Positions 34,159 through 46,427 of a DNA stretch of 64,000 nt are shown here, piece by piece. Made by a program: the position numbers and the translations under genes. Source of the DNA: Thermoplasmatota archaeon (GTDB lineage: Archaea > Thermoplasmatota > Penumbrarchaeia > Penumbrarchaeales > Penumbrarchaeaceae); assembly GCA_965234725.1 (NCBI GenBank), contig CBDDUX010000004.1, positions 1-64,000 on the forward strand, given 5' to 3'. The notes under the pieces were generated by a model. The model was given only the letters and a program-made list of their open reading frames with translations, had not been told where the DNA came from and made no database searches. The first letter of the stretch is position 1; each line of letters begins with the position of its first letter.

Positions 34159-35109
34159 ATGTCTCCCTCTTCCGATGGGATGGTAATTCAGATGAGGTCC
34201 CTCACCAAATACTATGGTAAAGCCAGGGGGATAATCGAGGTGGACCTTTCCGTGAAGAAAGGAGAGGTATTTGGATTTCTGGGACCCAACGGTGCAGGGA
34301 AATCCACAACGATCAGGACCATTCTGGATTACATCAGACCAACCTCAGGATCTGCCATGGTCAACGGAATGGACCCTCAAATGGATGGGGCAAAGGTCCG
34401 CAGGTCTGTGGGATACCTACCTTCTGATTTCGGTACATATCACAACATGACAGCAAAGGATTATCTCAATACACTTCTCGAAATGATGGGCCACAAGGGA
34501 CCGAACAGGATCAAGGAGCTTGCTGGCAGGCTCCAACTGGACCTTAAAAGGAGGATCAAGGATTACTCCAGAGGCAACAGGCAGAAGGTCGGCCTTGTGT
34601 CGGCTTTCATGCATTCCCCGGATCTCATCATCCTGGATGAACCCTCATCCGGGCTTGACCCCCTGATGCAACAGGAGTTCTACAAGATCATACTGGAAGA
34701 GAAGGCAGCCGGGAGGACCGTGTTCCTTTCATCCCATATACTTGCCGAGGTAGAGGCCATCTGCGATAGAGTCGGTATTATCAAAGAAGGACGGTTGATA
34801 GTCGTTGAGGATATCAGAAAGTTCAAGGAGAAGACCGGAAAGATAATGCAGGTAAGGTTTTCCGGAGAGGTATCCCCCTCTGAATTCGCATCGATACATG
34901 GTGTCGCCCATGTGGAGGTCGTAAGCGGGAACAGGTTGAAGATTACTATAACCGGAAACGTGGACCCTGTTATCAAGGTGTTATCAAAACATACGGTCCT
35001 TGATCTTGATTACGAAGATATGTCCCTTGAGAGCCTATTCCTGAAATACTATGAGAAGGAAGGTGTTGTGGACCGCAGAGGAAAGACCATCAAGGGGGTG
35101 GAAGCATGA
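34159..35109 (+). CDS. ABC exporter ATP-binding protein (ABC-2/DrrA-like)
   Basis: Walker A GPNGAGKST, signature YSRGNRQK, Walker B IILDEP and SSH switch. Confidence 0.93.
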   Translation: MSPSSDGMVIQMRSLTKYYGKARGIIEVDLSVKKGEVFGFLGPNGAGKSTTIRTILDYIRPTSGSAMVNGMDPQMDGAKVRRSVGYLPSDFGTYHNMTAKDYLNTLLEMMGHKGPNRIKELAGRLQLDLKRRIKDYSRGNRQKVGLVSAFMHSPDLIILDEPSSGLDPLMQQEFYKIILEEKAAGRTVFLSSHILAEVEAICDRVGIIKEGRLIVVEDIRKFKEKTGKIMQVRFSGEVSPSEFASIHGVAHVEVVSGNRLKITITGNVDPVIKVLSKHTVLDLDYEDMSLESLFLKYYEKEGVVDRRGKTIKGVEA

Positions 35110-36380
35110 AACTGCCTCTGTTCAGAGCAGCTCTCTGGGATTCAAAGATATCTACTATCATCTACTGCGTGGTTCTGGTCCTTTATGGTTTGATGATAAT
35201 GTCTGCTTTCTCTTCTGTTGGAGATACCTTCAGCGATCCCTTCGCAGAGAATAACGGAGTGAAGATCACTGAAACAGGAGATAAGGTCGAAAAAGTGAGT
35301 GTCTACAATCTCACATGGGATACACAGGCTGCCGTTCTTTCGCATGTCGCGGTGGGTATGGATTCCGAATGGGCAATGAACAGCCAGGTCATCGATGTAT
35401 TGAACGGGACCATTCCAGAAGAGATATCGGACCTGGGATTGGACTGGTTCCAGATCCTTGAGATGTCCGATATGGTCCCTGGATTGAAGGAGAAGCTTTC
35501 GGACCAAGGTGGAATGGAACCCAAATCTCCATATCAGATAGATGAGAATGGGACCACACTCCTCTATTTGGGAGAGGGAACATATGTCAATTTCGTCAAC
35601 ACCTATGAAAATGATATGTTCATTGTCATCCTCATCCCGAATGACGGCAATATCAGCAATGCAACGATCAAAGGTCCTGCCATGCTAGGGAACCTGGATA
35701 CGATGAGTGATTTTGACAAATACCTGGAGGACAATCCCTTTGTCGAGGGTTTCTTGGGTGATGTTAGTGTTGATTTCTCAACAATAGAGGGTTATCTCGC
35801 TTTGGAATACTTCAGCCTCTGGCCTCTTCTATTCATTATATTCCTTGCCGTGAAAACATCCGGGGTCATTTCAAAGCATGTAGAGGACAGGTCCCTGGAC
35901 ATACTGCTAGCAACAGGGTATTCCAGGTTCCGTTTCATGAACGAGAAGGTTCTATTGCTCATTTTGAACTTTTTATTGATCATATTCTCTGCTTGGTTGG
36001 GGCTGGTGTTGGGCACCATAATGCTTGGTGAATCCATTCCATTTTCGGGTTTGACCTTCACCTTCATCGATTCCATACCAATGGCACTGGCATTTGTCGG
36101 TATCGCGATGCTCATATCGGTACTGGTGGATGAGGGTGGAAAATCCATAGGTATTGTGATGGGGGTCGTATTGGGAGAGTACATGCTAAATGTCGTTGCC
36201 AATCTTGCCAATTGGGGTGACAGCGTCAAATATCTGAGCCTCTTCACATACTGGAACAGCAACGATGCGATGCTTCATGGTGTGATACACCCCATCAACG
36301 TGATAGTCCCTCTGGCTGTCGCAGGGATAACGATATTCCTTTCCTACTACCTGTTCCAGAAGAAGGAAATTAGGGCCTGA
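35106..36380 (+). CDS. ABC-2 type exporter permease with large extracellular loop
   Basis: ATGA overlap with the ATPase. One TM, then a long soluble loop, then about 5 TM, with an EDRSLDILLATGYSR motif and C-terminal F.KKEI. Confidence 0.85.
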   Translation: MKLPLFRAALWDSKISTIIYCVVLVLYGLMIMSAFSSVGDTFSDPFAENNGVKITETGDKVEKVSVYNLTWDTQAAVLSHVAVGMDSEWAMNSQVIDVLNGTIPEEISDLGLDWFQILEMSDMVPGLKEKLSDQGGMEPKSPYQIDENGTTLLYLGEGTYVNFVNTYENDMFIVILIPNDGNISNATIKGPAMLGNLDTMSDFDKYLEDNPFVEGFLGDVSVDFSTIEGYLALEYFSLWPLLFIIFLAVKTSGVISKHVEDRSLDILLATGYSRFRFMNEKVLLLILNFLLIIFSAWLGLVLGTIMLGESIPFSGLTFTFIDSIPMALAFVGIAMLISVLVDEGGKSIGIVMGVVLGEYMLNVVANLANWGDSVKYLSLFTYWNSNDAMLHGVIHPINVIVPLAVAGITIFLSYYLFQKKEIRA

Positions 36381-36433: not shown

Positions 36434-36841
36434 ATGGAAGAGAAGCTTAAGGCGATTGGGAACAGACTTGATCTGACAGAAGTTGATGTCAGGTCCATTC
36501 GCAAGAGGAGGTTGAAGGACATAATGATCCTTGCGATTATCGGGACCCTCACATCATTCTTCTCGTTCATCGTCGGGTTCAGTATTGGGAATACAGAGAA
36601 ATATGGAATGGCCTACTATCCTTATGCAATAGTACCCCTGGCCACTATCAGGAATTACAGGGGAAGATGGGCCATAGTGGGGATCGGAGCCCTTCTGATG
36701 ATCATCTCTGGTATCTTCTTCTATCTTCAAGGGTTCGAGGCTGGCAAAATATTCTACTCCAATTCCATTCTTTACGGTGTCTATCAAAGGACAAAATCAA
36801 GGCCGCTTCTCGGTGAATTTGAAATATCATCCAATCGATAA
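36434..36841 (+). CDS. Small membrane protein, paralogue P1 (candidate precursor; YPYA and YGVY motifs)
   Basis: MEEKLKAIGNRLDLTEVDVRSIRKRR + TM + YYPYA + TM + SILYGVY. TTGAAATA lies about 23 nt upstream. Confidence 0.8.
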   Translation: MEEKLKAIGNRLDLTEVDVRSIRKRRLKDIMILAIIGTLTSFFSFIVGFSIGNTEKYGMAYYPYAIVPLATIRNYRGRWAIVGIGALLMIISGIFFYLQGFEAGKIFYSNSILYGVYQRTKSRPLLGEFEISSNR

Positions 36842-36847
36842 TAGATC

Positions 36848-37216
36848 ATGGCCAAGGACCTGGAAGAGCTTGGATCCAGATTGGATATCGATGATGAGGA
36901 CATGGAAAGGATAAGGAGAAAGAAAAGAAAGGAATTGATACTTGGTCCAGTGATAGGGATTTCCATCACAGTTTTATCAACCATGTTGGGTTATTTTATT
37001 GGAAAGAACGATCCGGTCTATGATAAGGTCCTGACCTACCCTTATGCTGGCCCCTTCATTTTTGCAATGACAGCAGGGGTGAGGAGGAAAAGATTCTGGA
37101 TCTCAGTTGCGATAATAACGTTAATTGCTTCAATTATTGGATTCATCATCGCACACGAGACCGCTCAACCTCATGAATACGGACTTGCCATCGAGTATGG
37201 TGTATACAACAAGTGA
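36848..37216 (+). CDS. Small membrane protein, paralogue P2
   Basis: MAKDLEELGSRLDIDDEDMERIRRKKRK + TM + TYPYA + TM + EYGLAIEYGVYNK*. Confidence 0.82.
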   Translation: MAKDLEELGSRLDIDDEDMERIRRKKRKELILGPVIGISITVLSTMLGYFIGKNDPVYDKVLTYPYAGPFIFAMTAGVRRKRFWISVAIITLIASIIGFIIAHETAQPHEYGLAIEYGVYNK

Positions 37217-37226
37217 GGGAGATCGA

Positions 37227-38513
37227 ATGAAACTCAATCTGGGATGCGGAAAGGTTTACAAACCCGGATACATCAATATCGATTCAGGCGACAGGTCCGT
37301 TGCCGATGAGTTCTGGAATATCATGGACCTCCCTCTAAAGGACGCTTCGGTGGACCTGGTCGAGGCAGACCAGGTGATCGAACATTTCGATTGGGTGAAC
37401 GTCAGGTATCTTCTTGCCGAATGCTGGCGTGTTTTGAAACCCAATGGAAGATTGATACTGGAGACACCGGACCTCCTGGGGACAATGAAGAAACTGAAAA
37501 GGACCCAGGGGGAAGAATTCCTCATAGGATCACAATGGCTTTTTGGAATTGGGACCAAGGGTCAAAGGCACGGGATGGTCTTCAAAGAAAAGGAACTCCA
37601 GGGAATGCTGATATCCTCCGGATTCGAGGATGTTGAGTTCTCTCCGCAGAGGACACATCTCTACGAACCTGGATTACATCTTGAATGTCATAAGGGAAAG
37701 GGCGAGGGGAGGAGAAAAGTAGAGACCCTGTTCCGCAAAAGGGTCAGAGCTGTATTCAAAGGGGATTCCTATCTCCTTATACCCATCGAGGACCACATGA
37801 ACGAACTCTTTTTCTCACTTACTGTGGACGGTGAACCAAGGGAACCGATCTTCACGGAGAACATTTTCAGAGCAGCCCTTGCCGACCCTGAGATACCCGG
37901 TCAGCTGATCCTTTCCATGAAAGCCTACAGGAAAGGTATGGAGATGGCCGACGAGCTCATGGAAGCAATGAGGTTCATCCATGATGAACAGATAAAAGGA
38001 AGGGCCTTTTCACTCTGGATGAAAAGGAAGAAAGGAGCTGATGTAAGGAAATCCTTCGAAGATTTCATCATTGATCTCTCCGATAAATTGAGAGATGCCA
38101 TTCTCCGATCCCAGGATCCTAAGAAGGAACTTGTCTATCTACTTTCATTGCAGCCGGAGGACATCAGATTATTGGATTTCAGGATGATCTCTGACAAAGC
38201 AAGGGAATGGTCCAATCAGGGAATTAAGGCCTTCAATAAAGGGGAGATGGATGAAGCAATGACCAATTTGGAGAGATCGATAAATGTGATACCCAACAAT
38301 CCGATAACCCATTGGAACATTGCCAGGCTCCTCTATCGTAAAGGATCGAGGTCCGAGGCACTAAAAAGATTTGACAAGATAAACAAACTATTGACCGACA
38401 AGGACCTCTTAAGGGAGACAAAGAAGGAACAGGATCTGATGAGGAAGGGGGCCATCGACCCGGAAACAATAGGTCCGAGATCCGAGGTCCATGTCGGAAA
38501 TATGTTCCAATAA
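37227..38513 (+). CDS. Class I SAM-dependent methyltransferase fused to helical/TPR domain
   Basis: KLNLGCG..GYINID, LP..DASVD.V...VIEH and ECWRVLKPNGRLILETPD. C-terminal TPR (G..AF..G.MDEA...LE.SI...PNN...HWNIA). GAGGGAG precedes ATG 37227. Confidence 0.85.
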   Translation: MKLNLGCGKVYKPGYINIDSGDRSVADEFWNIMDLPLKDASVDLVEADQVIEHFDWVNVRYLLAECWRVLKPNGRLILETPDLLGTMKKLKRTQGEEFLIGSQWLFGIGTKGQRHGMVFKEKELQGMLISSGFEDVEFSPQRTHLYEPGLHLECHKGKGEGRRKVETLFRKRVRAVFKGDSYLLIPIEDHMNELFFSLTVDGEPREPIFTENIFRAALADPEIPGQLILSMKAYRKGMEMADELMEAMRFIHDEQIKGRAFSLWMKRKKGADVRKSFEDFIIDLSDKLRDAILRSQDPKKELVYLLSLQPEDIRLLDFRMISDKAREWSNQGIKAFNKGEMDEAMTNLERSINVIPNNPITHWNIARLLYRKGSRSEALKRFDKINKLLTDKDLLRETKKEQDLMRKGAIDPETIGPRSEVHVGNMFQ

Positions 38514-38544
38514 ATTATTTAAAGGGTTCAACCAATTGAATCTT

Positions 38545-38916
38545 ATGAAGGAGAGGCTCGAAGAAATCGGGAAGAGACTTGGCCTTTCGAAGAATGATAT
38601 CAAGGAGGTCAGGAGGGAGGGTAGGAAATACAGGACCTTATTTTTCTTAGGAGGAGCGATCCTTGCATTGATCGCCTTCATCCTTGGTCTTCTTTTCGGA
38701 TGGTTCACCAAGAAGGAGACGGGCGGAAACGGATCAGGGAATCCTGATCCGGGTGGTGGATATCCCTACGCGGGGGTTGCCGTGGTGGTTGGAGGGTTGA
38801 AGTATTCAAGACCATCAAGAATGGCATTGATCCTTGCTACAGCCGTTGCTTTCCTTGCAGGCTTATCCGCTCCTGTGTTTGGACAGAGCATAGATTACGG
38901 TGTTTATTGTAAGTGA
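38545..38916 (+). CDS. Small membrane protein, paralogue P3
   Basis: MKERLEEIGKRLGLSKNDIKEVRREGRK + TM + GGYPYA + TM + PVFGQSIDYGVYCK*. TTATTTAAAG lies about 21 nt upstream. Confidence 0.82.
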   Translation: MKERLEEIGKRLGLSKNDIKEVRREGRKYRTLFFLGGAILALIAFILGLLFGWFTKKETGGNGSGNPDPGGGYPYAGVAVVVGGLKYSRPSRMALILATAVAFLAGLSAPVFGQSIDYGVYCK

Positions 38917-38928
38917 GGAGCTGATTTC

Positions 38929-39309
38929 CTGGATCGACTGAAGGAGATCGCCGATAGATTAGGCCTATCAGAGGATGATGTAAGCGAGATAAGAAAGGAA
39001 AGGAGGAAATTGAGGTGGATGATCGCCATTGGAGGTCTTATTGCGGCATTACTGATGTTCCTGATGGGTTTCTTAATTGGGTTCTTCATATCCAATGGTG
39101 ATCCCAGTGGTGACCCTTTTAGTGAACCCTCCGGTGATGGATATCCTTTTGCCACCTCTGCTTTTGGCATTGCGAGCACTCAAGGAAGAAAATGGAAAAG
39201 AATTCTGATGCCAGCCCTTTTCATTCTTGGGTTTCTGACCGGATTGTCCAGGCCTGTATTTGGGAACAGCGTCCGATATGGTGTATTCAGGAGAGGCGAG
39301 GTCAGATGA
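38929..39309 (+). CDS. Small membrane protein, paralogue P4 (probable CTG start)
   Basis: In-frame extension of ORF 39010..39309 gives LDRLKEIADRLGLSEDDVSEIRKERRK + TM + DGYPFA + TM + PVFGNSVRYGVF. GAGGAG ends 8 nt before CTG 38929. Confidence 0.75.
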   Translation: MDRLKEIADRLGLSEDDVSEIRKERRKLRWMIAIGGLIAALLMFLMGFLIGFFISNGDPSGDPFSEPSGDGYPFATSAFGIASTQGRKWKRILMPALFILGFLTGLSRPVFGNSVRYGVFRRGEVR

Positions 39310-40319
39310 AATTAAAACCGGAAGTAGCTGTGTGGGAGACCACGCTCAGATGTAATCTCAGATGTTCTCATTGCGGATCCGTCGCCGGGGATGCAAGAAC
39401 AGATGAACTTTCAACTCAGGAATGCTTCTCACTTATCGAACAGTTGGCAGATCTGGGTTGCAAGGATGTGTCCTTGATGGGCGGGGAGTTCCTTATCCGG
39501 GATGACTGGCATGCTCTTGGTGGATGTGTGAAGGATCTGGGAATGGACCTCTGCATGGTCTCGAACGGTATTATGGTCCCGAAGTTCATCAATGAAATAT
39601 CGAGACTGCAACCAAAGGTAGTGGGTATATCCGTTGACGGATTGAAGGAAGCTCACGAGAAGATCAGGGGGAAGGGGACCTTCGATCCGACAATGAAAGC
39701 CGTTGACATGCTGCTTGATAGAGATATTCAGACGACCCTGATAACCACTATCAGCAAGATCAATTTCAAGGACCTTCCAAAGATGGCGGAGATGATAAAG
39801 GGAAGGGGATGCAATTGGCAGATCCAGACAGCGATGCCCTTCGGAAATTTCAGCAGGGATCTGCTAATCTCCGAAGAGGACTACTACGCCTCGGCCATGT
39901 TCATTGCGAAACAGAGGATAAACAACAAGTTCGAGGACCTTCCTCTAATTGGAGCCCACTGTTATGGATACCATTCAAAGGTCCTTCCCGGGTGCAAATG
40001 GGGCGGGTGTACGGCTGGTTTAAGATCGATCGGAATAACATCGAACGGTGGAATAGTCGGGTGCCTTTCAATGGGAAATGAGAGGTTCATCGAGGGGAAT
40101 ATCAGGGAGAGGACCTTGAGAGAGATCTGGGAGGATCCCAGAGCTTTTACCTACAACCGGAAATTCAGTAAAGAGGAACTTGGACCGAATTGCAAAGGTT
40201 GTAGATATGGGAAGAAGTGCAAGGGTGGCTGCAATTCAGTGTCCATTTCTTTGACAAATCGTTTTCATAATGATCCCTACTGCTTCCGCAGGATTGAAAG
40301 GGATGTAATTGGAATTTGA
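39306..40319 (+). CDS. Radical SAM/SPASM peptide/protein maturase, splicease (PlpX)-like
   Basis: AVWETTLRCNLRCSHCGS (CxxxCxxC), ELST.E, GGE, ISVDG and WQIQ..MP.GN. SPASM domain W.GCTAG..IGI...G...GCLS, GNIRE, CKGC.....CKGGC and DPYC. ATGA overlap with P4. Confidence 0.88.
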   Translation: MKLKPEVAVWETTLRCNLRCSHCGSVAGDARTDELSTQECFSLIEQLADLGCKDVSLMGGEFLIRDDWHALGGCVKDLGMDLCMVSNGIMVPKFINEISRLQPKVVGISVDGLKEAHEKIRGKGTFDPTMKAVDMLLDRDIQTTLITTISKINFKDLPKMAEMIKGRGCNWQIQTAMPFGNFSRDLLISEEDYYASAMFIAKQRINNKFEDLPLIGAHCYGYHSKVLPGCKWGGCTAGLRSIGITSNGGIVGCLSMGNERFIEGNIRERTLREIWEDPRAFTYNRKFSKEELGPNCKGCRYGKKCKGGCNSVSISLTNRFHNDPYCFRRIERDVIGI

Positions 40320-40346: not shown

Positions 40347-40898
40347 TCACTTTAATCGTTCCTTGATCCTCTTGAAGAGGTCCTCATCGATCTTGCCTGT
40401 GAGAAGGTCCTCCGCCGCTCTTTTCAGGATCTCTTTGACCAAGGTGTCCTGGTCGATGTATTCGAACCTTGTGGACCTTCCGTCCTTCCATTTTCTTACC
40501 AATCCCAGGGAGAGAAGGGTTCTGATATTGTAATCGAACGTGAACCTGGAGCATCTTACCAATGAGCATATCTCCTTCTGGTTCGATCCGGGATTGCTCT
40601 TTATTCGATGAAGGATCTTCTGCTGAAGGTCAGATAACGGAACGCCGATCAGATTTCCTTCGGGATCTATCTGATTGGATTGTTTCGTATCTGATGGAAA
40701 GTAACACCTCTTCCCATTCAGGATCTTGGCCAGTATGATCCTCTTCCTTTCCAGATATTGAAGGTGATACCTTAGTGTCCCGTCAGGCATCTGGTAAATA
40801 TTTCTTAATGTAACGAAGGAGACCCCGGGATAGGTCGCAATATGGTTGAAGATCGATCTTCTTGTATGATGATCGATCACTCGACCTTCCGCATCCAT
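40347..40898 (-). CDS. Tandem winged helix-turn-helix transcriptional regulator (archaeal ArsR-like)
   Basis: Two wHTH units: R..IF.HI..YPG.SF..L......GTLRYHL..LE and Q.IL..I..NPG.NQ.EI.....F.YNI..L...G.V. Confidence 0.82.
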   Translation of the reverse strand: MDAEGRVIDHHTRRSIFNHIATYPGVSFVTLRNIYQMPDGTLRYHLQYLERKRIILAKILNGKRCYFPSDTKQSNQIDPEGNLIGVPLSDLQQKILHRIKSNPGSNQKEICSLVRCSRFTFDYNIRTLLSLGLVRKWKDGRSTRFEYIDQDTLVKEILKRAAEDLLTGKIDEDLFKRIKERLK

Positions 40899-40934
40899 CA
40901 GACACCCTCGCAATGTACATCTCGATCCAGTACA

Positions 40935-42830
40935 TCAATCGAGTATCTCTTGTATGGATCTGTAAGTGCTTTCACTGATACGACCATCGAATTTACTGTC
41001 CTCAAGAAGGACCCGGATACTGTCCGAATCAACTTCGATCTCTCCTTTGTCCCCGGACCGGGTAATATCTCTGATATATTCCCTAATCCTTTCCTCCTCC
41101 TTTGTCAGATCACCGGATCTCTTACCAATTGACCTAATGACTATGAAGGTGGCAAGGAAAAAAAGTATTGCGCATATAAATATGATTACCGGTACGAGGA
41201 TGTATCCATCAATCCGGTATCTATCGGGGTCCTTATCCCTTTGATCTCTGGGATCGTTCAGATATCTATCAATTTCCAGTCCGGTGGTCGAGTCGTTCTG
41301 GTCCATCCCAGGATTCCATTCATCTGGATATCCATCCATGTCTTCATCTACCGATGCGGCGGGATCATAGGGAAATTTATCCTTGTCATCTGTTATATTA
41401 TCCCCATCCGTGTCCTTTGTTTCATTGGTTTGATTATTATCCGGATCACTGCCCTCTTCCTCCTTCCATCTTGAAGGGTCCAGGGGGTAGAAATCAGAAT
41501 TGTCTCCAACCTTGTCACCGTCTGAATCCATCCATTCCGATGGATCCTCAGGGAATGCATCTGTATTGTTTCCTACTCCATCACCATCTGTGTCGATCCA
41601 TTCATTGGGATCATTTGGAAATGCATCGGAGTTGTCGCCGAAGGTATCGTTATCGGAATCCTTCCATTCATTCGGATCGTTGGGAAAGACATCCGAATTA
41701 TCCCCCACCGTATCATTATCGGTGTCATTCCATTCGTTGGGATCTTCAGGGAACCTGTCGATTGGATCCGTGTATCCATCACCATCGCTGTCTTTTTTAG
41801 TGGGTGTATAATGGATATTTAGTATACCAACCTCTACCCTGGAGCCACTGCAGGTCGAGATGAACTCGTTGTTTGAAGAGATCTCGATATCCTTGATCCA
41901 AGGGAATTTATTCACCACATCCAGGTCGATCCTATCATCGATATGCATAATGCAGAGTTGGGAAACGTTCGAATAGAAGAAGAATTTGCCTTCCTTGTCC
42001 AAAGCTCCTGTTGAAATTGCAGGAAGGTTCTCGATAAGGGCCTCGAATTCTTTAGTATTGGCATCTGCCAGATACATCGTCTCATTTCCAAACACCATGT
42101 TGGAACTGTGGGGTCTCCATTCCAGATACGTTGCGATCACCGGAAAGGGACCGATGGTGCTATACAGTTCGATATCATCGTTAGAGGAGAGATATACTAT
42201 CTCGACAATTCCCCTGAAGGGTCTCCCATCCATCCCAATGAATTGATAACTTGATACAGCAAGATGTCCAATATCCGAATAGTCGATGGCAACAACAGAA
42301 CCATAAGGATTGTAATTATCTATCACGGTCCAATCAGTCGTATTGAGTATGTCCACATTACCGTAATGAGGTCCGCTCACTGCCAATCTTGTATGTGAAG
42401 TATCAGATGAAAGACATGAGATCCATTCATTGAAATAGGTATCTTCCAACAAATTCATATCCGGGACAGTATAGATCCTCAGTCCTCCTTGGTATGTATT
42501 GTGCTGTGATCCCATTCCCACTGCAAGAACAAGATCTCCGTCACTATAGGTCCACTCAAGATCCCTGATGGTATGGTTTTCCTTGATGGTCCAATCGATA
42601 CCATGTGTTGTATGATTGAACCCAATAACGGTCCCGTTCTGGTAACCGATAGCTACGGTGTTTCCATCTGGTGAGAATTTGATAACGTTCGGACTCCCCT
42701 CAACGATGGTGGCCCAGGAGTCCGGGAATATATCTTCCTCTGCTCCTGCTACCATGAAAGTAGAAGTGAACAGGGTTAGAAGAATTATCGAAATTCCTGG
42801 GGTAAGGAGGTTTCTGACGAATGAACTCAC
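40935..42830 (-). CDS. Surface protein: WD40-like propeller + thrombospondin type 3-like Ca-binding repeats + TM
   Basis: Signal peptide from GTG 42830 (TATATATA about 21 nt upstream); WD40-like FSPDG..VAIG; 22-aa repeats; TM ILVPVIIFICAILFFLATFIVI. Confidence 0.8.
   Translation of the reverse strand: MSSFVRNLLTPGISIILLTLFTSTFMVAGAEEDIFPDSWATIVEGSPNVIKFSPDGNTVAIGYQNGTVIGFNHTTHGIDWTIKENHTIRDLEWTYSDGDLVLAVGMGSQHNTYQGGLRIYTVPDMNLLEDTYFNEWISCLSSDTSHTRLAVSGPHYGNVDILNTTDWTVIDNYNPYGSVVAIDYSDIGHLAVSSYQFIGMDGRPFRGIVEIVYLSSNDDIELYSTIGPFPVIATYLEWRPHSSNMVFGNETMYLADANTKEFEALIENLPAISTGALDKEGKFFFYSNVSQLCIMHIDDRIDLDVVNKFPWIKDIEISSNNEFISTCSGSRVEVGILNIHYTPTKKDSDGDGYTDPIDRFPEDPNEWNDTDNDTVGDNSDVFPNDPNEWKDSDNDTFGDNSDAFPNDPNEWIDTDGDGVGNNTDAFPEDPSEWMDSDGDKVGDNSDFYPLDPSRWKEEEGSDPDNNQTNETKDTDGDNITDDKDKFPYDPAASVDEDMDGYPDEWNPGMDQNDSTTGLEIDRYLNDPRDQRDKDPDRYRIDGYILVPVIIFICAILFFLATFIVIRSIGKRSGDLTKEEERIREYIRDITRSGDKGEIEVDSDSIRVLLEDSKFDGRISESTYRSIQEILD
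41463..41792 (-). repeat. Five 66-bp (22-aa) tandem TSP3-like repeats
   Basis: DSDGDGYTDPIDRFPEDPNEWN / DTDNDTVGDNSDVFPNDPNEWK / DSDNDTFGDNSDAFPNDPNEWI / DTDGDGVGNNTDAFPEDPSEWM / DSDGDKVGDNSDFYPLDPSRWK. Confidence 0.9.
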
Positions 42831-43067
42831 ATTAGCGTTATGAGATCCCGTATATATATCAAGTTCAACGATAATTTGAAACATATCTGGCCCTTTGATC
42901 CTATATAATTTTTGTGACAATCTTATCCAACATATCAGGAGAATATTTGAAGAATACATGAAATGTTGACGGATAATGCCGTAATATTTTAATAGGTAGG
43001 TTTGAGCCAGATATGTGAGAACAATATTGTGATATCCTCCTTATAATCCCAAAAGAATATCTTATCC

Positions 43068-46000
43068 ATGGGAAGGGAAGAGTTCTCTCTTAAGATCCCA
43101 CAAGGGAATAGGTCTAGACCATCCGTATTACCATTTGCATTGATGTTCATTTTCATTGTAATGATAATTATCGGGTCCTATCAGGGATCATTCTCTGGTT
43201 TAAAGGAAGATGAGGGTCCATTGATATTCAATAATGTGACCAATATGGATTTCAGTAATGATACTTTATTCCTTGCTTCTCCAGATAATGATCTGAAGGT
43301 TTGTGTATGGACAACTGAATTGGGTGATGAGAAGGGGTGTCCGGTATACAGTATTCTATACAATGGGGATCCTGTTGTTCAAAGGTCCAGATTGGGGTTG
43401 AATATTGAAGGAATGGAGGAGAAATTATCTTCTGGTCTGATGTTAGATGGAAATGAAAGAAGTTCGGTGAACAGTTCGATCGAACTAGTTGCCTCCGATG
43501 TTGATGTTATTCCGGAGAGATACAACCAGATGATCGTTTCTTACAGTAGTACGGAAGAAGAGGAAATCGGGATGGATATCATTTTCAGAGCATACGATGA
43601 AGGCATATCTTTCTCATATTATGTGGATAAGCTTGATGGAAAGAAGACCTGTAGGATAAAAGATGAAATTACCAGTTTCAATGTAACAGAGGATTCTATT
43701 TGTTTTGCTGAATATGGTGTAGAGGCGGCATACAATAAAGTAAAGGTCTCGGAGATCAAGAAGGACTGTGAACTGCCTCTGCTAATAGAAGATGCGGATT
43801 CGGAGTGTTGGATGACCATTTCGGAAGCAGGTCTTCAAGATTACTCAAGGGCATTCCTTGGTCCCGGTAGCAAGATGAATGGGACCATAGACACATCCAT
43901 TTATTCCAGTGTTGGAAAGAATGTTCCATTTACCACTCCATGGAGGATGGTCCTGATCGGAGATCATCCTTTCGAGATGATCGAAAAGGGCCGGATATGT
44001 TATTCAATGTGCTCTGACAATGTTATAGGTGATACGAGCTGGATAATGCCAGGTAAGGCATTCAGGGATTGTTCTTTGACCACCAAAGGGTCGAAAGGCA
44101 TCATCGACTACTGTTCATATCATGGAATGGAATATGTTCATCTGGACGCAGGCTGGTATGGAAAGGAAAGTGAATCAAGTTCGGATGCATCTACCGTTTC
44201 AGCGAAGAACCTGAACCTTACAGAGGTAATCTCCTATGCAAAGAGCAAGGATATCGGTGTGATCCTATACGTTAACAACAAGGCTCTTACCAGACAGTAC
44301 AAGGATATCTTCCCTCTTTACAAGAAGTGGGGTATCGCTGGAGTGAAGTTCGGTTTCGTCGACGGAAGGTCCCAGGCTGGAATAAACTTCGTTCATAAAG
44401 CGGTTCAGGAAGCGGCAAAGAACGAATTGATCGTTGATGTTCACGATTATTACAGACCTACAGGGATGAGCAGGACATATCCCAATTTGCTGACACAGGA
44501 GGGAGTCAGGGGAAACGAGCAATTCCCCTCTGCTCGGGATAACACGATACTCCCATTCACACGGTGTGTTGCCGGTCCGACCGATTATACGCCGATATTT
44601 GCAACGAAGGGGACGACCACGACAATGGCCCATCAACTTGCCCTTCCTATCGTAATATTCAGCCCTCTTCAATACATTTACTGGTATGGCACGCCGGAAA
44701 AGGCCGGGAATTCTTCCATCAATACACTGTGGGATAATATTCCCACCGTGTGGAATGAATCGATATTCATAGAAGGAAATCCCGGGAGCCATGCGGTTTA
44801 CGCCAGGAGATCGGACAAAGACTGGTATCTTGGTGCGATCAACGGTCCGAAAGATAGGACCTTAAAGATCAGATTGGATTTCCTTGATCAGGGCGATCAA
44901 TATTCTGCTCGTTTGTACACTGACCCGGGCAATGGTTCGGTGGAGATCAGGGACTTCACTGTCAACTCTGAAACAGAGATCATTGAAAATGTCCCTCAAA
45001 GAAGTGGATTATCCATGAAGATAAAGGAGGTCCAGGAAGATCCTCCCCCGGATGACGACAAGTATCCACCCCGACTTGTTGATATCGGAAAATGGGAGAT
45101 CTTCGAGGATACGGTTCAGAAGGTGACTCTGCTTTCCCCCAATGGCTGGGATGGGCTTACCATCAAACATGATCCGCTTCCAGGATTCCTTCATCTTCTG
45201 GAGGGGGATAAGGCACTATTGGCTGAACCAGGAAATGATGATGTCGGAGATCATTCCGTTGTGTTCGAACTGTTTTCGGGAGAAGAACTCCTAGACAGCA
45301 TTGAAATGGTAATTGAGGTCCAAAATGTCAATGACCCTCCGGAGATGACCATTCCCGAATATGTAATGATGGATACGGGAACCCGTTATGTCATACCTTT
45401 GAAAGCAACCGATATCGATCCAACAGAGGATGATCTGATATGGGAGATAAATACCAATGCTGATTTCTTCGATCTGGATGAAGAAAATGATACTTTGAAT
45501 GCATATCCTACACTCCTTGACGGAGGGATGCATACAATATATCTCAATGTAAGTGACGGTAATGGGGGTTCTGTTGAAGGAAAGATGTATGCCCTCGTCA
45601 CCCAACCGAACGGTTCCGTTTTCCTTCTGCCATCCAACGGGTCCCTTGAACTCCGGGAAGGACAATACTTCACATATAGGTTCCAGGCGATCTCAGAGGG
45701 AAAGAATGTTGAGAATTTGATATGGAAGCTGAAGAACGCTCCCTCCTTCCTTTCGATAGATGAAGACTCTGGGATCCTATCGGGGAGATCCGGGAATAAG
45801 GATGCTGGTGTTTACATGTTCGATGTCACCTTGGAGGAAGGAGGCGTTGAAACGGCAAGTGCAACCTTTACGGTTTTTGTGCATAGGGTAAATGATCCCC
45901 CCATGATCACAACATCCCCCACGCTTATTGAAGTTGATGCTGGGAGTACTCTTCAAGTGGAGCTTGATGCCATAGATGAGGATCTCATCTCAGGATCCTT

Positions 46001-46427
46001 GAAATGGAGCATGGTAGAATCCCCCGATTTTGCGATCGTTGAGACCGAAACGGGAAAGCTCCTGATATCTCCTGGTGAAGATGAAAGGGGATTCCATGAG
46101 GTCCTGGTCCGGGTGGAAGATCCTGAGGGAGCATTTGACGATCTGGTGCTAGCGGTCCTCGTAAATGGAGATGAATCGGGCAAGGATATCGAGGAATGGG
46201 AATACAATGGAAGTAAGGTTCGGGTCATCCCCGTTGAAATAACTTCCGATGTTTGGAATGAGTACCCCTATTATGTGGTGGATGGATCATCCATCATCAT
46301 CTATTATCCTTTCATGGAAGAAAGTATCGAGGATCCGGGAGATGGTTCGGATATTGGTTATATTGCATTATTTGTGATCCTGGTCTCTGTTATCACAATA
46401 TTCATCCATATGTTCATCAAGAGATAG
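43068..46427 (+). CDS. Glycoside hydrolase family 97 with cadherin-like/Ig repeats and C-terminal TM
   Basis: GH97 motifs LASPD.DL.V, FRAYDEG, TPWR, DTSWI.PGK, DAGWY, RPTG.SRTYPN..T.EGVRGNE, LPFTR..AGP.DYTP, T.AHQLA and PTVW. VNDPP linkers mark cadherin-like modules. Confidence 0.88.
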   Translation: MGREEFSLKIPQGNRSRPSVLPFALMFIFIVMIIIGSYQGSFSGLKEDEGPLIFNNVTNMDFSNDTLFLASPDNDLKVCVWTTELGDEKGCPVYSILYNGDPVVQRSRLGLNIEGMEEKLSSGLMLDGNERSSVNSSIELVASDVDVIPERYNQMIVSYSSTEEEEIGMDIIFRAYDEGISFSYYVDKLDGKKTCRIKDEITSFNVTEDSICFAEYGVEAAYNKVKVSEIKKDCELPLLIEDADSECWMTISEAGLQDYSRAFLGPGSKMNGTIDTSIYSSVGKNVPFTTPWRMVLIGDHPFEMIEKGRICYSMCSDNVIGDTSWIMPGKAFRDCSLTTKGSKGIIDYCSYHGMEYVHLDAGWYGKESESSSDASTVSAKNLNLTEVISYAKSKDIGVILYVNNKALTRQYKDIFPLYKKWGIAGVKFGFVDGRSQAGINFVHKAVQEAAKNELIVDVHDYYRPTGMSRTYPNLLTQEGVRGNEQFPSARDNTILPFTRCVAGPTDYTPIFATKGTTTTMAHQLALPIVIFSPLQYIYWYGTPEKAGNSSINTLWDNIPTVWNESIFIEGNPGSHAVYARRSDKDWYLGAINGPKDRTLKIRLDFLDQGDQYSARLYTDPGNGSVEIRDFTVNSETEIIENVPQRSGLSMKIKEVQEDPPPDDDKYPPRLVDIGKWEIFEDTVQKVTLLSPNGWDGLTIKHDPLPGFLHLLEGDKALLAEPGNDDVGDHSVVFELFSGEELLDSIEMVIEVQNVNDPPEMTIPEYVMMDTGTRYVIPLKATDIDPTEDDLIWEINTNADFFDLDEENDTLNAYPTLLDGGMHTIYLNVSDGNGGSVEGKMYALVTQPNGSVFLLPSNGSLELREGQYFTYRFQAISEGKNVENLIWKLKNAPSFLSIDEDSGILSGRSGNKDAGVYMFDVTLEEGGVETASATFTVFVHRVNDPPMITTSPTLIEVDAGSTLQVELDAIDEDLISGSLKWSMVESPDFAIVETETGKLLISPGEDERGFHEVLVRVEDPEGAFDDLVLAVLVNGDESGKDIEEWEYNGSKVRVIPVEITSDVWNEYPYYVVDGSSIIIYYPFMEESIEDPGDGSDIGYIALFVILVSVITIFIHMFIKR

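Follow-up and report, generated by a model that had tools for sequence, protein, structure and literature searches.

Small Membrane Proteins with a Conserved Leader and a Terminal Tyrosine Motif as Probable Substrates of a Radical SAM/SPASM Enzyme and a Methyltransferase

Introduction

Four paralogous small genes, here called P1 to P4, lie at positions 36434-39309 on the plus strand of a 64,000-nucleotide stretch of DNA from a Thermoplasmatota archaeon (GenBank assembly GCA_965234725.1, contig CBDDUX010000004.1, positions 1 to 64,000); this whole stretch is referred to below as the window. They are accompanied by a gene for a methyltransferase carrying a TPR-like solenoid and by a gene for a radical S-adenosylmethionine (rSAM) enzyme of the SPASM type. 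The question raised by this locus is whether the small proteins are what the two enzymes act upon. A first-pass annotation, made from the sequence of the window, had proposed that each small protein carries an N-terminal leader recognized by an enzyme, a YG pair near the C-terminus that is modified, and a YPYA motif that is a second modification or cleavage site.

The comparisons described here indicate that P1-P4 are probably substrates of a leader-guided modification by the co-encoded rSAM/SPASM enzyme and the methyltransferase-TPR protein. Three architectures retain the leader and the Tyr motif, namely archaeal proteins with three transmembrane (TM) segments, bacterial proteins with signal peptides or lipoprotein signals, and TM-less peptides of 57-69 amino acids (aa). 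In addition, the family and the rSAM co-occur perfectly among related genomes. Both facts are as a recognition leader and a modification site predict.

The Four Paralogues and Their Motifs

Open reading frames (ORFs) and alignment bear out a paralogous set of four members in which each protein has the leader, a YP[YF] motif and a terminal Y-G-V-[YF]. P1 (36434-36841, 135 aa) has its leader at residues 1-28, YPY at 36617-36625 and YGVY at 36773-36784; its C-terminal tail after the motif, of 19 residues, is longer than in the sibling proteins. P2 (36848-37216, 122 aa) has YPY at 37037-37045 and YGVY at 37196-37207. In P3 (38545-38916, 123 aa), a variable loop rich in G, S, N and P (about 38700-38760) precedes YPY (38761-38769), and YGVY is found at 38896-38907. 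P4 (38929-39309, about 126 aa) lacks a canonical start and has YPF at 39142-39150 and YGVF at 39277-39288. The Tyr codons of YG are at 36773, 37196, 38896 and 39277, exactly where they had been reported, and correspond to residues 114, 117, 118 and 117, respectively (P4 being counted from CTG 38929). The extra YG described for P1 (KYGM) and P2 (EYGL) is present in both. The pairwise identity of P2-P4 with P1 is 26-35%, and the 14 invariant columns of the alignment include Y-P and Y-G-V. The leader follows the consensus KLxEIGxKLxLSxxDIxxIR and is succeeded by a basic patch; its near-invariant Gly is Ala in P4.

Comparison of P1-P3 with a congener gave dN/dS ratios of 0.13-0.23 at dS values of 0.44-0.73, which indicates purifying selection and thus that these are real genes. 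With respect to the G004 orthologues, the ratios were 0.175 for P1 and 0.134 for P2, and that of the methyltransferase against the congener was 0.063. Contigs of related strains, obtained from other marine-sediment runs, match the window at 95-99% and then diverge at 38717. Since this position is inside the P3 loop, the region between TM1 and YPY is hypervariable among strains. The four related-strain contig sets that were compared with the window revealed strain divergence only and nothing on the P4 start.

Size and Conservation of the Family

A profile built from the four proteins, the check proposed by the first-pass annotation, picked up tandem arrays of 1-9 copies in 9 further genomes, all related and of the same phylum. 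A 40-member profile extended the family to 353 representative clusters at E ≤ 1e-3 (177 of them at ≤ 1e-10) among 1.84 billion proteins. Motifs were scanned in 150 listed representatives of the 353, which range from 88 to 285 aa, and 147 sequences were aligned. In this alignment, invariance is limited to Y-P in YP[YF] and to Tyr in Y-G-V, the TM1 Gly and the Val of YGV being conserved in at least 90%. YP was present in all 150 representatives, and Y-x-[VIAL]-[YFCWH] was found within the last 40 residues in 130 of them. The second position of the motif in these 130 carriers is occupied by G (81), N (30), S (10), D (8) or A (1), and 1-32 residues, mostly 2-10, follow the motif. It had been stated beforehand that a lack of YG conservation in wider homologues would speak against the proposed site. 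The outcome is divided, because Tyr and Val hold and Gly does not (N, S, D or A in 49/130).

There is no model for this family in Pfam or NCBIfam, and no Pfam family was matched by more than 3 of the 40 members, all weakly. A search of the family profile against the PDB gave nothing meaningful (the best E value, 0.0043, corresponded to a designed protein), a word-indexed search returned 12 matches without a Pfam domain or a meaningful name, and an ESM Atlas search with P3 gave no usable match. Thus, the known transporter or structural family that would have contradicted the first-pass annotation was not found in the Pfam, NCBIfam and PDB profile searches. Two candidates were discarded: the ECF transporter S component (PF12822), which P2 matches with 22.4 bits against a cut-off of 30.7 and which was hit by 1 of the 40 members, and a sigma-70-like helix-turn-helix (HTH), since the matches of P3 and P4 to sigma-70 regions 3 and 4 (E 0.025-0.066) are below cut-offs.

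Co-Inheritance with the Putative Modifying Enzymes

The methyltransferase-TPR gene, 1-9 tandem family genes and the rSAM gene are found together in all informative related loci, where identity is 58-87% for the rSAM and 31-95% for the methyltransferase. In distant loci, no gene families recur other than those of the small proteins, methyltransferase-TPR and rSAM. The ABC transporter, the regulator and other neighbours are syntenic within the genus only (the ABC genes in 3 same-genus loci); judged by this synteny, the ABC ATPase/permease pair is a genus-level neighbour outside the conserved core.

A search based on an rSAM alignment, with one genome per species, yielded 80 loci. Those with 53-92% rSAM identity carry labels of Thermoplasmatota/Thermoplasmatales or of Asgard phyla, apart from a small number of bins that are DPANN or mislabelled. 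Matches to the family hidden Markov model (HMM) were found beside the rSAM in 32 of these 33 archaeal loci (L040-L072), the copy of L043, which is broken by masked bases, being recognized by eye. Among 61 related genomes, the family (E < 1e-5) is present in 10 and the rSAM orthologue (E ≤ 1e-83) in exactly the same 10, with 0/51 in the others. One further genome contains a weaker rSAM paralogue only (2.6e-63) and no family member. The patchy spread of the trio across the families of the phylum is as expected for an accessory cassette.

Predicted Membrane Topology

The first-pass annotation described two TM segments separated by a short hydrophobic and basic stretch. Hydropathy supports TM1 and the last TM segment in all members; the short hydrophobic stretch after YPYA, however, is probably a third, short TM segment, which in deeper-branching members is a clear hydrophobic segment of 17-26 residues starting at YP[YF] and in the window proteins comprises 10-15 residues. 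In the 147 sequences, the number of Lys plus Arg per 100 residues is 25 at the N-terminus, 9.9 in the loop before YP and 11.4 in the C-terminal tail, and the 12 residues before the last TM segment show 31 per 100 and a net charge of +26.5. Read with the positive-inside rule as a charge-bias heuristic, this distribution favours three TM segments, an N-in/C-out orientation, and both invariant motifs on the outer face. Whether leader and YG both face the cytoplasm had been raised as a check, and the charge bias puts YG outside.

The AlphaFold2 model of P3 (pLDDT 71) contains helices at residues 2-11, 16-58, 76-83 and 92-107. A turn follows helix 2-11, helix 16-58 comprises a second leader helix that is continuous with TM1, and a low-confidence loop precedes helix 76-83.

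Bacterial and TM-Less Relatives

More distant loci belong to bacteria (Elusimicrobia, Geobacter hydrogenophilus, and Desulfuromonadota-like and Nitrospirota bins), with rSAM identities of 36-46%. In these loci the rSAM is followed by a methyltransferase that is homologous over the catalytic domain. The methyltransferase orthologue adjoins the rSAM in 29 of 41 loci and a small protein clusters with the pair in 27 of 41. The bacterial small proteins open with the same leader (MKKLYELGAKTGLTxxEVNRV...), directly followed by a signal peptide that has a lipobox Cys in Elusimicrobia and an AxA site in the Geobacter-type proteins. Because the lipobox or AxA signal peptide follows the leader, the tagged C-terminus of the bacterial proteins would also be exported. 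These proteins end in CGPYPGYPCGT[RK]Y[YF]TVSxxDF or YPVSKYG[AG]VGxRDF, and those of the Geobacter type carry a Kunitz domain (1.6e-14). The spacing from YP to the Tyr is 5-6 residues in bacteria, whereas the archaeal family has the TM2-TM3 hairpin inserted between the two.

A third form is found in the Thermoplasmatota locus L074, which contains two rSAMs, a methyltransferase and at least 5 tandem TM-less peptides of the length given above. The leader of these peptides is the same and their C-terminus reads YKxxxxYGT[IV]SI[NHK]DF, and the bacterial proteins and the L074 peptides share the ending Y-[GY]-[TVA]-[VI]-S..DF. The comparison of the archaeal family with the bacterial proteins by hhalign gave a probability of 92.5% (E 4.7e-7) over the leader and the first hydrophobic segment, and the profile-profile comparison with the L074 peptides a probability of 91.3% (E 9.6e-7). 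The leader and the Tyr tag thus behave as conserved modules, which would leave the stretch between them free to vary.

Two further genes accompany bacterial cassettes. In the Elusimicrobia locus L079, the genes of the methyltransferase and of the lipoprotein with the leader flank one for an RDD-family membrane protein (1.4e-24; L079:9154-10077). The small protein is followed, in 14 bacterial loci, by a protein of about 320-350 aa that has no assigned family.

The Radical SAM Enzyme and the Methyltransferase

The presumed maturase is a 337-aa rSAM/SPASM enzyme encoded at 39306-40319 (+), the ATG of which overlaps the P4 stop (ATGA). It has a CX3CX2C motif at residues 16-23 and the full set of SPASM cysteines, all of them invariant in 7 aligned sequences (the window protein and 6 orthologues). 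The Pfam matches are Radical_SAM (4e-23) and SPASM (7e-10), the core starting at residue 11 with no N-terminal domain ahead of it. The best NCBIfam model is TIGR04103 (2.7e-60; 204.1 bits vs a cut-off of 725), TIGR03913 scores 5.7e-55 (186.6 bits vs a cut-off of 591.75), and the models of heme and other cofactor rSAMs give about 1e-33 to 1e-37. The nearest solved chains by sequence are PqqE (6c8v, 4.3e-14, residues 9-326) and SkfB (6efn, 5.7e-14).

Two specific assignments of this enzyme were rejected. In the cyclopropyl synthases TvgB and TigE, the Aux I cluster is described as being ligated by a GYW motif (PMC10878394); the window rSAM and its 6 orthologues have G-Y-[HFY], with no Trp. The lipid synthase Hbs (H-GDGT bridge synthase) is described as being at least 400 aa long and as carrying about 100 additional aa at the N-terminus (COG4001; bioRxiv 10.1101/2023.10.20.563219), whereas the window enzyme, with its 337 aa and its CX3CX2C at residues 16-23, is devoid of such an extension.

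The second enzyme (37227-38513, +) is composed of a class I SAM methyltransferase domain at residues 1-156 and a TPR-like solenoid at residues 162-406, and shows Pfam matches to Methyltransf_11 (2.2e-9) and to TPR models. Its AlphaFold2 model (pLDDT 95.2, pTM 0.90) consists of a compact class I fold and an all-alpha solenoid of 245 residues; a Foldseek search with this model returned generic class I methyltransferases only. Since no RiPP recognition element (RRE; RiPP, ribosomally made peptide with post-translational modifications) was detected in the rSAM, the modelled solenoid is the likely docking surface and a candidate for binding the leader. The complex prediction of rSAM, methyltransferase and P3 scored 0.58-0.61; the partner-replaced controls scored 0.00 and 0.00, and the methyltransferase-replaced control 0.64, a pattern that speaks neither for nor against binding.

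Proposed Modification Pathway

The role of the leader as an enzyme-recognition sequence is supported at the level of comparison, the leader being kept across three architectures beside orthologous enzymes. Likewise, the comparison favours the Tyr of YG as a modification site, since it is invariant and persists across architectures; the Gly that had been included in the site is not conserved. With respect to YPYA, the comparison leans towards the modification half of the original proposal and away from the cleavage half: since the bacterial spacing is of 5-6 residues and no protease is conserved in the cassette, YP[YF] more probably forms a bipartite site together with Y-G-V.

A substrate would consist, in this order, of a cytoplasmic leader of about 28 residues that resembles an HTH, TM1, a hypervariable outer loop, Y-P-[YF] opening a short TM2, a cytoplasmic turn rich in Lys and Arg, TM3, and a short outer tail with the Tyr in Y-[GNSD]-V-[YF]. 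The leader would dock the newly made protein onto the enzymes, likely through the methyltransferase solenoid. At the bipartite YP...Y-x-V site, the rSAM could then carry out a radical reaction and the methyltransferase add a methyl group, both in the cytoplasm and ahead of the insertion of the TM2-TM3 hairpin and the tail. The modified motif would finally reach the outer face by hairpin insertion in archaea and by Sec export in bacteria. In the archaeal proteins, the hairpin would bring YP and the Tyr together on one side of the membrane.

By analogy, the most plausible reaction would be a crosslink or oxidation centred on Tyr or Val; a cyclophane-like link and a Tyr-derived cofactor are other candidate products. 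A broader proposal is put forward only tentatively, and we would sooner doubt it than rely on it: the trio may represent, in Archaea and Bacteria, an undescribed maturation system in which the leader lies upstream of an export signal or anchor and a Tyr-derived crosslink or cofactor is made in the cytoplasm and then displayed outside. Its product might be a protein-tethered relative of pyrroloquinoline quinone (PQQ) or mycofactocin chemistry, with the two halves of the archaeal site split by a TM hairpin and joined only in the folded membrane protein.

Several observations weigh against P1-P4 being substrates of the two enzymes. The charge bias places both conserved motifs outside, away from cytoplasmic enzymes, so that modification would have to precede insertion, which is an added assumption. 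Such an order has precedents in other SPASM enzymes with exported protein substrates, for instance the anaerobic sulfatase maturases and QhpD. No PqqD or RRE match was obtained for the rSAM or the methyltransferase in Pfam or NCBIfam, and neither a leader peptidase nor a dedicated exporter is conserved in the archaeal or bacterial cassettes. Among the 150 representatives, 20 lack the motif as defined or its fourth aromatic residue (YGVS, YGVR, YDTY, or truncated sequences). Taken one by one, the bacterial sequences score weakly with the leader-only HMM (E 0.07-10 among 9749 ORFs), even if nearly all its top matches are rSAM-adjacent proteins; the homology of the bacterial leader rests, in consequence, on the profile-profile result and on context. 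Finally, the rSAM gene is split while the small genes are intact in two genomes (L029:4871-5921 (-) and L037:7768-8888), which may reflect decay, assembly errors, or small proteins working without the enzyme. The split is into two pieces in one congener and into three pieces with in-frame stops in the other genome.

Alternative Explanations

The alternative that survives best, unlikely as it is, holds that P1-P4 are precursors of released RiPPs similar to bacteriocins or archaeocins, a fragment of which (the C-terminal tail, or TM3 with the tail) would be exported by the upstream ABC-2 transporter. The multiple divergent copies with a conserved leader agree with it, as do an rSAM closest to peptide maturases, the ABC ATPase and ABC-2 permease genes directly upstream on the same strand, and the short peptides of L074. 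However, the ABC transporter is missing from distant cassettes, its synteny being confined to the 3 same-genus loci, and there is no protease conserved in the archaeal or bacterial cassettes that would release a peptide. The bacterial counterparts rely on signal peptides of the general Sec or lipoprotein kind and may include a folded Kunitz domain, which argues for modified proteins rather than excised peptides.

Somewhat harder to sustain, and in our opinion improbable, is that the small proteins are membrane adaptors instead of substrates, the leader recruiting the rSAM and the methyltransferase to modify a lipid or another membrane component. Archaeal membrane lipids are indeed modified by rSAM enzymes of the SPASM type, as described for Hbs (bioRxiv 10.1101/2023.10.20.563219), and a cytoplasmic leader together with a TPR-like docking domain on the methyltransferase would suit such recruitment. 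However, neither the TM-less peptides of L074 nor the signal-peptide and lipoprotein forms, from which the leader would be cleaved off, can anchor enzymes, and both the invariant extracytoplasmic Tyr motifs and the existence of 1-9 divergent copies are left unexplained. The rSAM itself, without the Hbs extension, gives better scores with peptide maturases (1e-60) than with AhbD-like enzymes (1e-33).

The notion that the conserved N-terminus is an extension of the n-region of an export signal (such specialised extensions exist, for instance, in YSIRK-type signal peptides) or a membrane-tethered DNA-binding HTH, with an indirect link to the enzymes, is very improbable: although in the bacterial and archaeal 3-TM proteins a TM segment or signal peptide always comes immediately after the motif, and P3 and P4 show the sub-threshold sigma-70 similarity mentioned above, the L074 peptides keep the leader without any hydrophobic segment, two helices of about 25 residues are an incomplete HTH domain, and the strict co-occurrence with rSAM and methyltransferase is left unexplained.

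Comparison with Known Systems

The pair formed by an rSAM/SPASM enzyme and an adjacent ribosomal substrate containing Tyr recalls PqqA/PqqE of the PQQ system, PqqE being the nearest solved chain. PqqA is short and soluble, and it depends on the RRE of PqqD. In contrast, the putative substrates here are 3-TM or exported proteins, an RRE is undetected, and a methyltransferase is a constant partner. The rSAM does not qualify as a PqqE (TIGR02109), as it scores 81.5 bits against a cut-off of 381.35.

The cassette is also similar to MftA/MftC of mycofactocin in having a C-terminal motif of the G-V-Y type beside an rSAM/SPASM enzyme (TIGR03962, E 1e-31). MftA ends in GVY, its Tyr being the last residue, and MftB supplies the RRE. 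Membership in the mycofactocin system was discarded: the rSAM scores 110.4 bits for MftC (TIGR03962) against a cut-off of 265, and residues always follow the motif in its 130 carriers. Unlike in MftA, it is the first Tyr and not the last aromatic residue that is invariant.

The best-scoring models for the archaeal and Geobacter rSAMs, TIGR04103 (nif11-class peptide rSAM maturase 3) and TIGR03913 (GDL-motif peptide-associated maturase), both describe SPASM peptide maturases. The window enzyme does not qualify for these classes, since both its scores are far below the cut-offs and the partner proteins lack a nif11 leader or a GDL motif.

The motif Y-x-V presumably fits the shape of an aromatic-X-X cyclophane motif, which we take as a lead only. 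StrB, WgkB, RrrB and others are described as rSAMs of crosslinking RiPP families that form three-residue cyclophanes (PMC11851443). The SPASM rSAMs of these families join an aromatic side chain to a nearby residue within a short motif. With the WgkB model, the window rSAM scores 108 bits against a cut-off of 650. In Archaea, the rSAM/SPASM enzyme CrpC of Methanococcus voltae is described as modifying a whole protein of the same cluster, CrpA, which is Cys-rich and receives thioether (ranthionine) links; an RRE is predicted in CrpC (PMC13692751). In contrast to CrpA/CrpC, there is no conserved Cys here, the conserved residues being Tyr and Val, and the putative substrates are membrane proteins.

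The cassette was not found described in the searchable literature, which leaves subscription journals and supplements outside its scope. If P1-P4 are indeed substrates, they would represent a widespread new substrate class for rSAM maturation, with 353 representative clusters and an occurrence in Thermoplasmatota, Asgard archaea, Elusimicrobia and Geobacter-type bacteria, consisting of integral membrane or exported proteins instead of short soluble peptides. The putative system would be unusual in the position of the leader ahead of a signal peptide or TM anchor, in the constant pairing of a methyltransferase with an rSAM in which no RRE is detected, and in its presumed Tyr-centred chemistry. 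Tractable substrates would be available in the L074 peptides without TM segments and in the protein with a Kunitz domain from the cultured bacterium G. hydrogenophilus. For the archaeal 3-TM forms, it would have to be explained how a site destined for the outer face is reached by an enzyme of the cytoplasm.

Translation Starts and Other Features of the Arrays

The leader of P4 is in frame directly behind the TGA of P3. The first ATG, GTG or TTG of this frame, at 39010, is a start that would remove the leader. A GAGGAG box similar to a Shine-Dalgarno sequence is present, with CTG 38929 located 8-9 nucleotides further on; this CTG is thus a candidate P4 start. Among 91 family genes, 78 have an ATG at the expected place, 7 have a GTG or TTG only, and 6 have none of these. 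Four of these six have an ACG right behind the stop of a sibling (GAT TGA/TAA ACG), where a sibling has ATG, and belong to two genomes of different families (the loci noted are L032:5753-6586 (-), L036:5708-6625 (-) and L052:6219-6635). Of the remaining two, one has ATT or ATA behind an AAGGAGG box and the other is P4. This pattern suggests near-cognate initiation or re-initiation inside tandem arrays.

Adjacent members of an array frequently share a reading frame, with one stop codon in between (38914-38919 in the window, and also in L031, L032, L033 and L036). P1 and P2, which share a frame too, are separated by two stops and one codon (TAA TAG ATC; 36839-36850). Stop read-through between such genes would putatively yield fused proteins.

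Some arrays contain additional genes. A 465-aa GTPase of the EF-1alpha/EF-Tu type (GTP_EFTU, 2.1e-45, with domains 2 and 3) lies inside the array in two genomes of one genus (L034:7639-9036 and L037:6072-7487). In two genomes from the same family of this phylum, the array is interrupted on the opposite strand by a gene for a secreted protein of about 260 aa with a NosD-type right-handed beta-helix (L035:4147-4932, NosD 1.5e-12, and L038:5205-5993 (-)). One family member of 242 aa (L036:6629-7354 (-)) is enlarged by about 110 residues, rich in Ser and Pro, which are inserted after the YP motif and ahead of the last TM segment.

Organization of the Locus and Neighbouring Genes

Every gene between 34159 and 40319 is on the plus strand, with gaps of at most 53 nucleotides, a packing that resembles an operon. 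The region begins with the ABC ATPase (34159-35109) and the ABC-2 permease (35106-36380), both with Pfam and NCBIfam matches, the latter being separated from P1 by a gap of 53 nucleotides. A scan for sigma-70 promoters and terminators gave results at the level of shuffled controls, and the sigma-70 model does not suit an archaeon. Downstream of the rSAM gene, a winged-helix regulator (40347-40913) is convergent to the cassette. It is followed by a gene at 40935-42959 (-) for a 674-aa membrane-anchored protein in which Asp-rich repeats of the DxDxDG type were recognized by eye, and which is syntenic within the genus. The gene at 43068-46427 (+) codes for a protein of 1119 aa in which inspection by eye revealed repeated segments similar to Ig or cadherin domains and a C-terminal TM segment.

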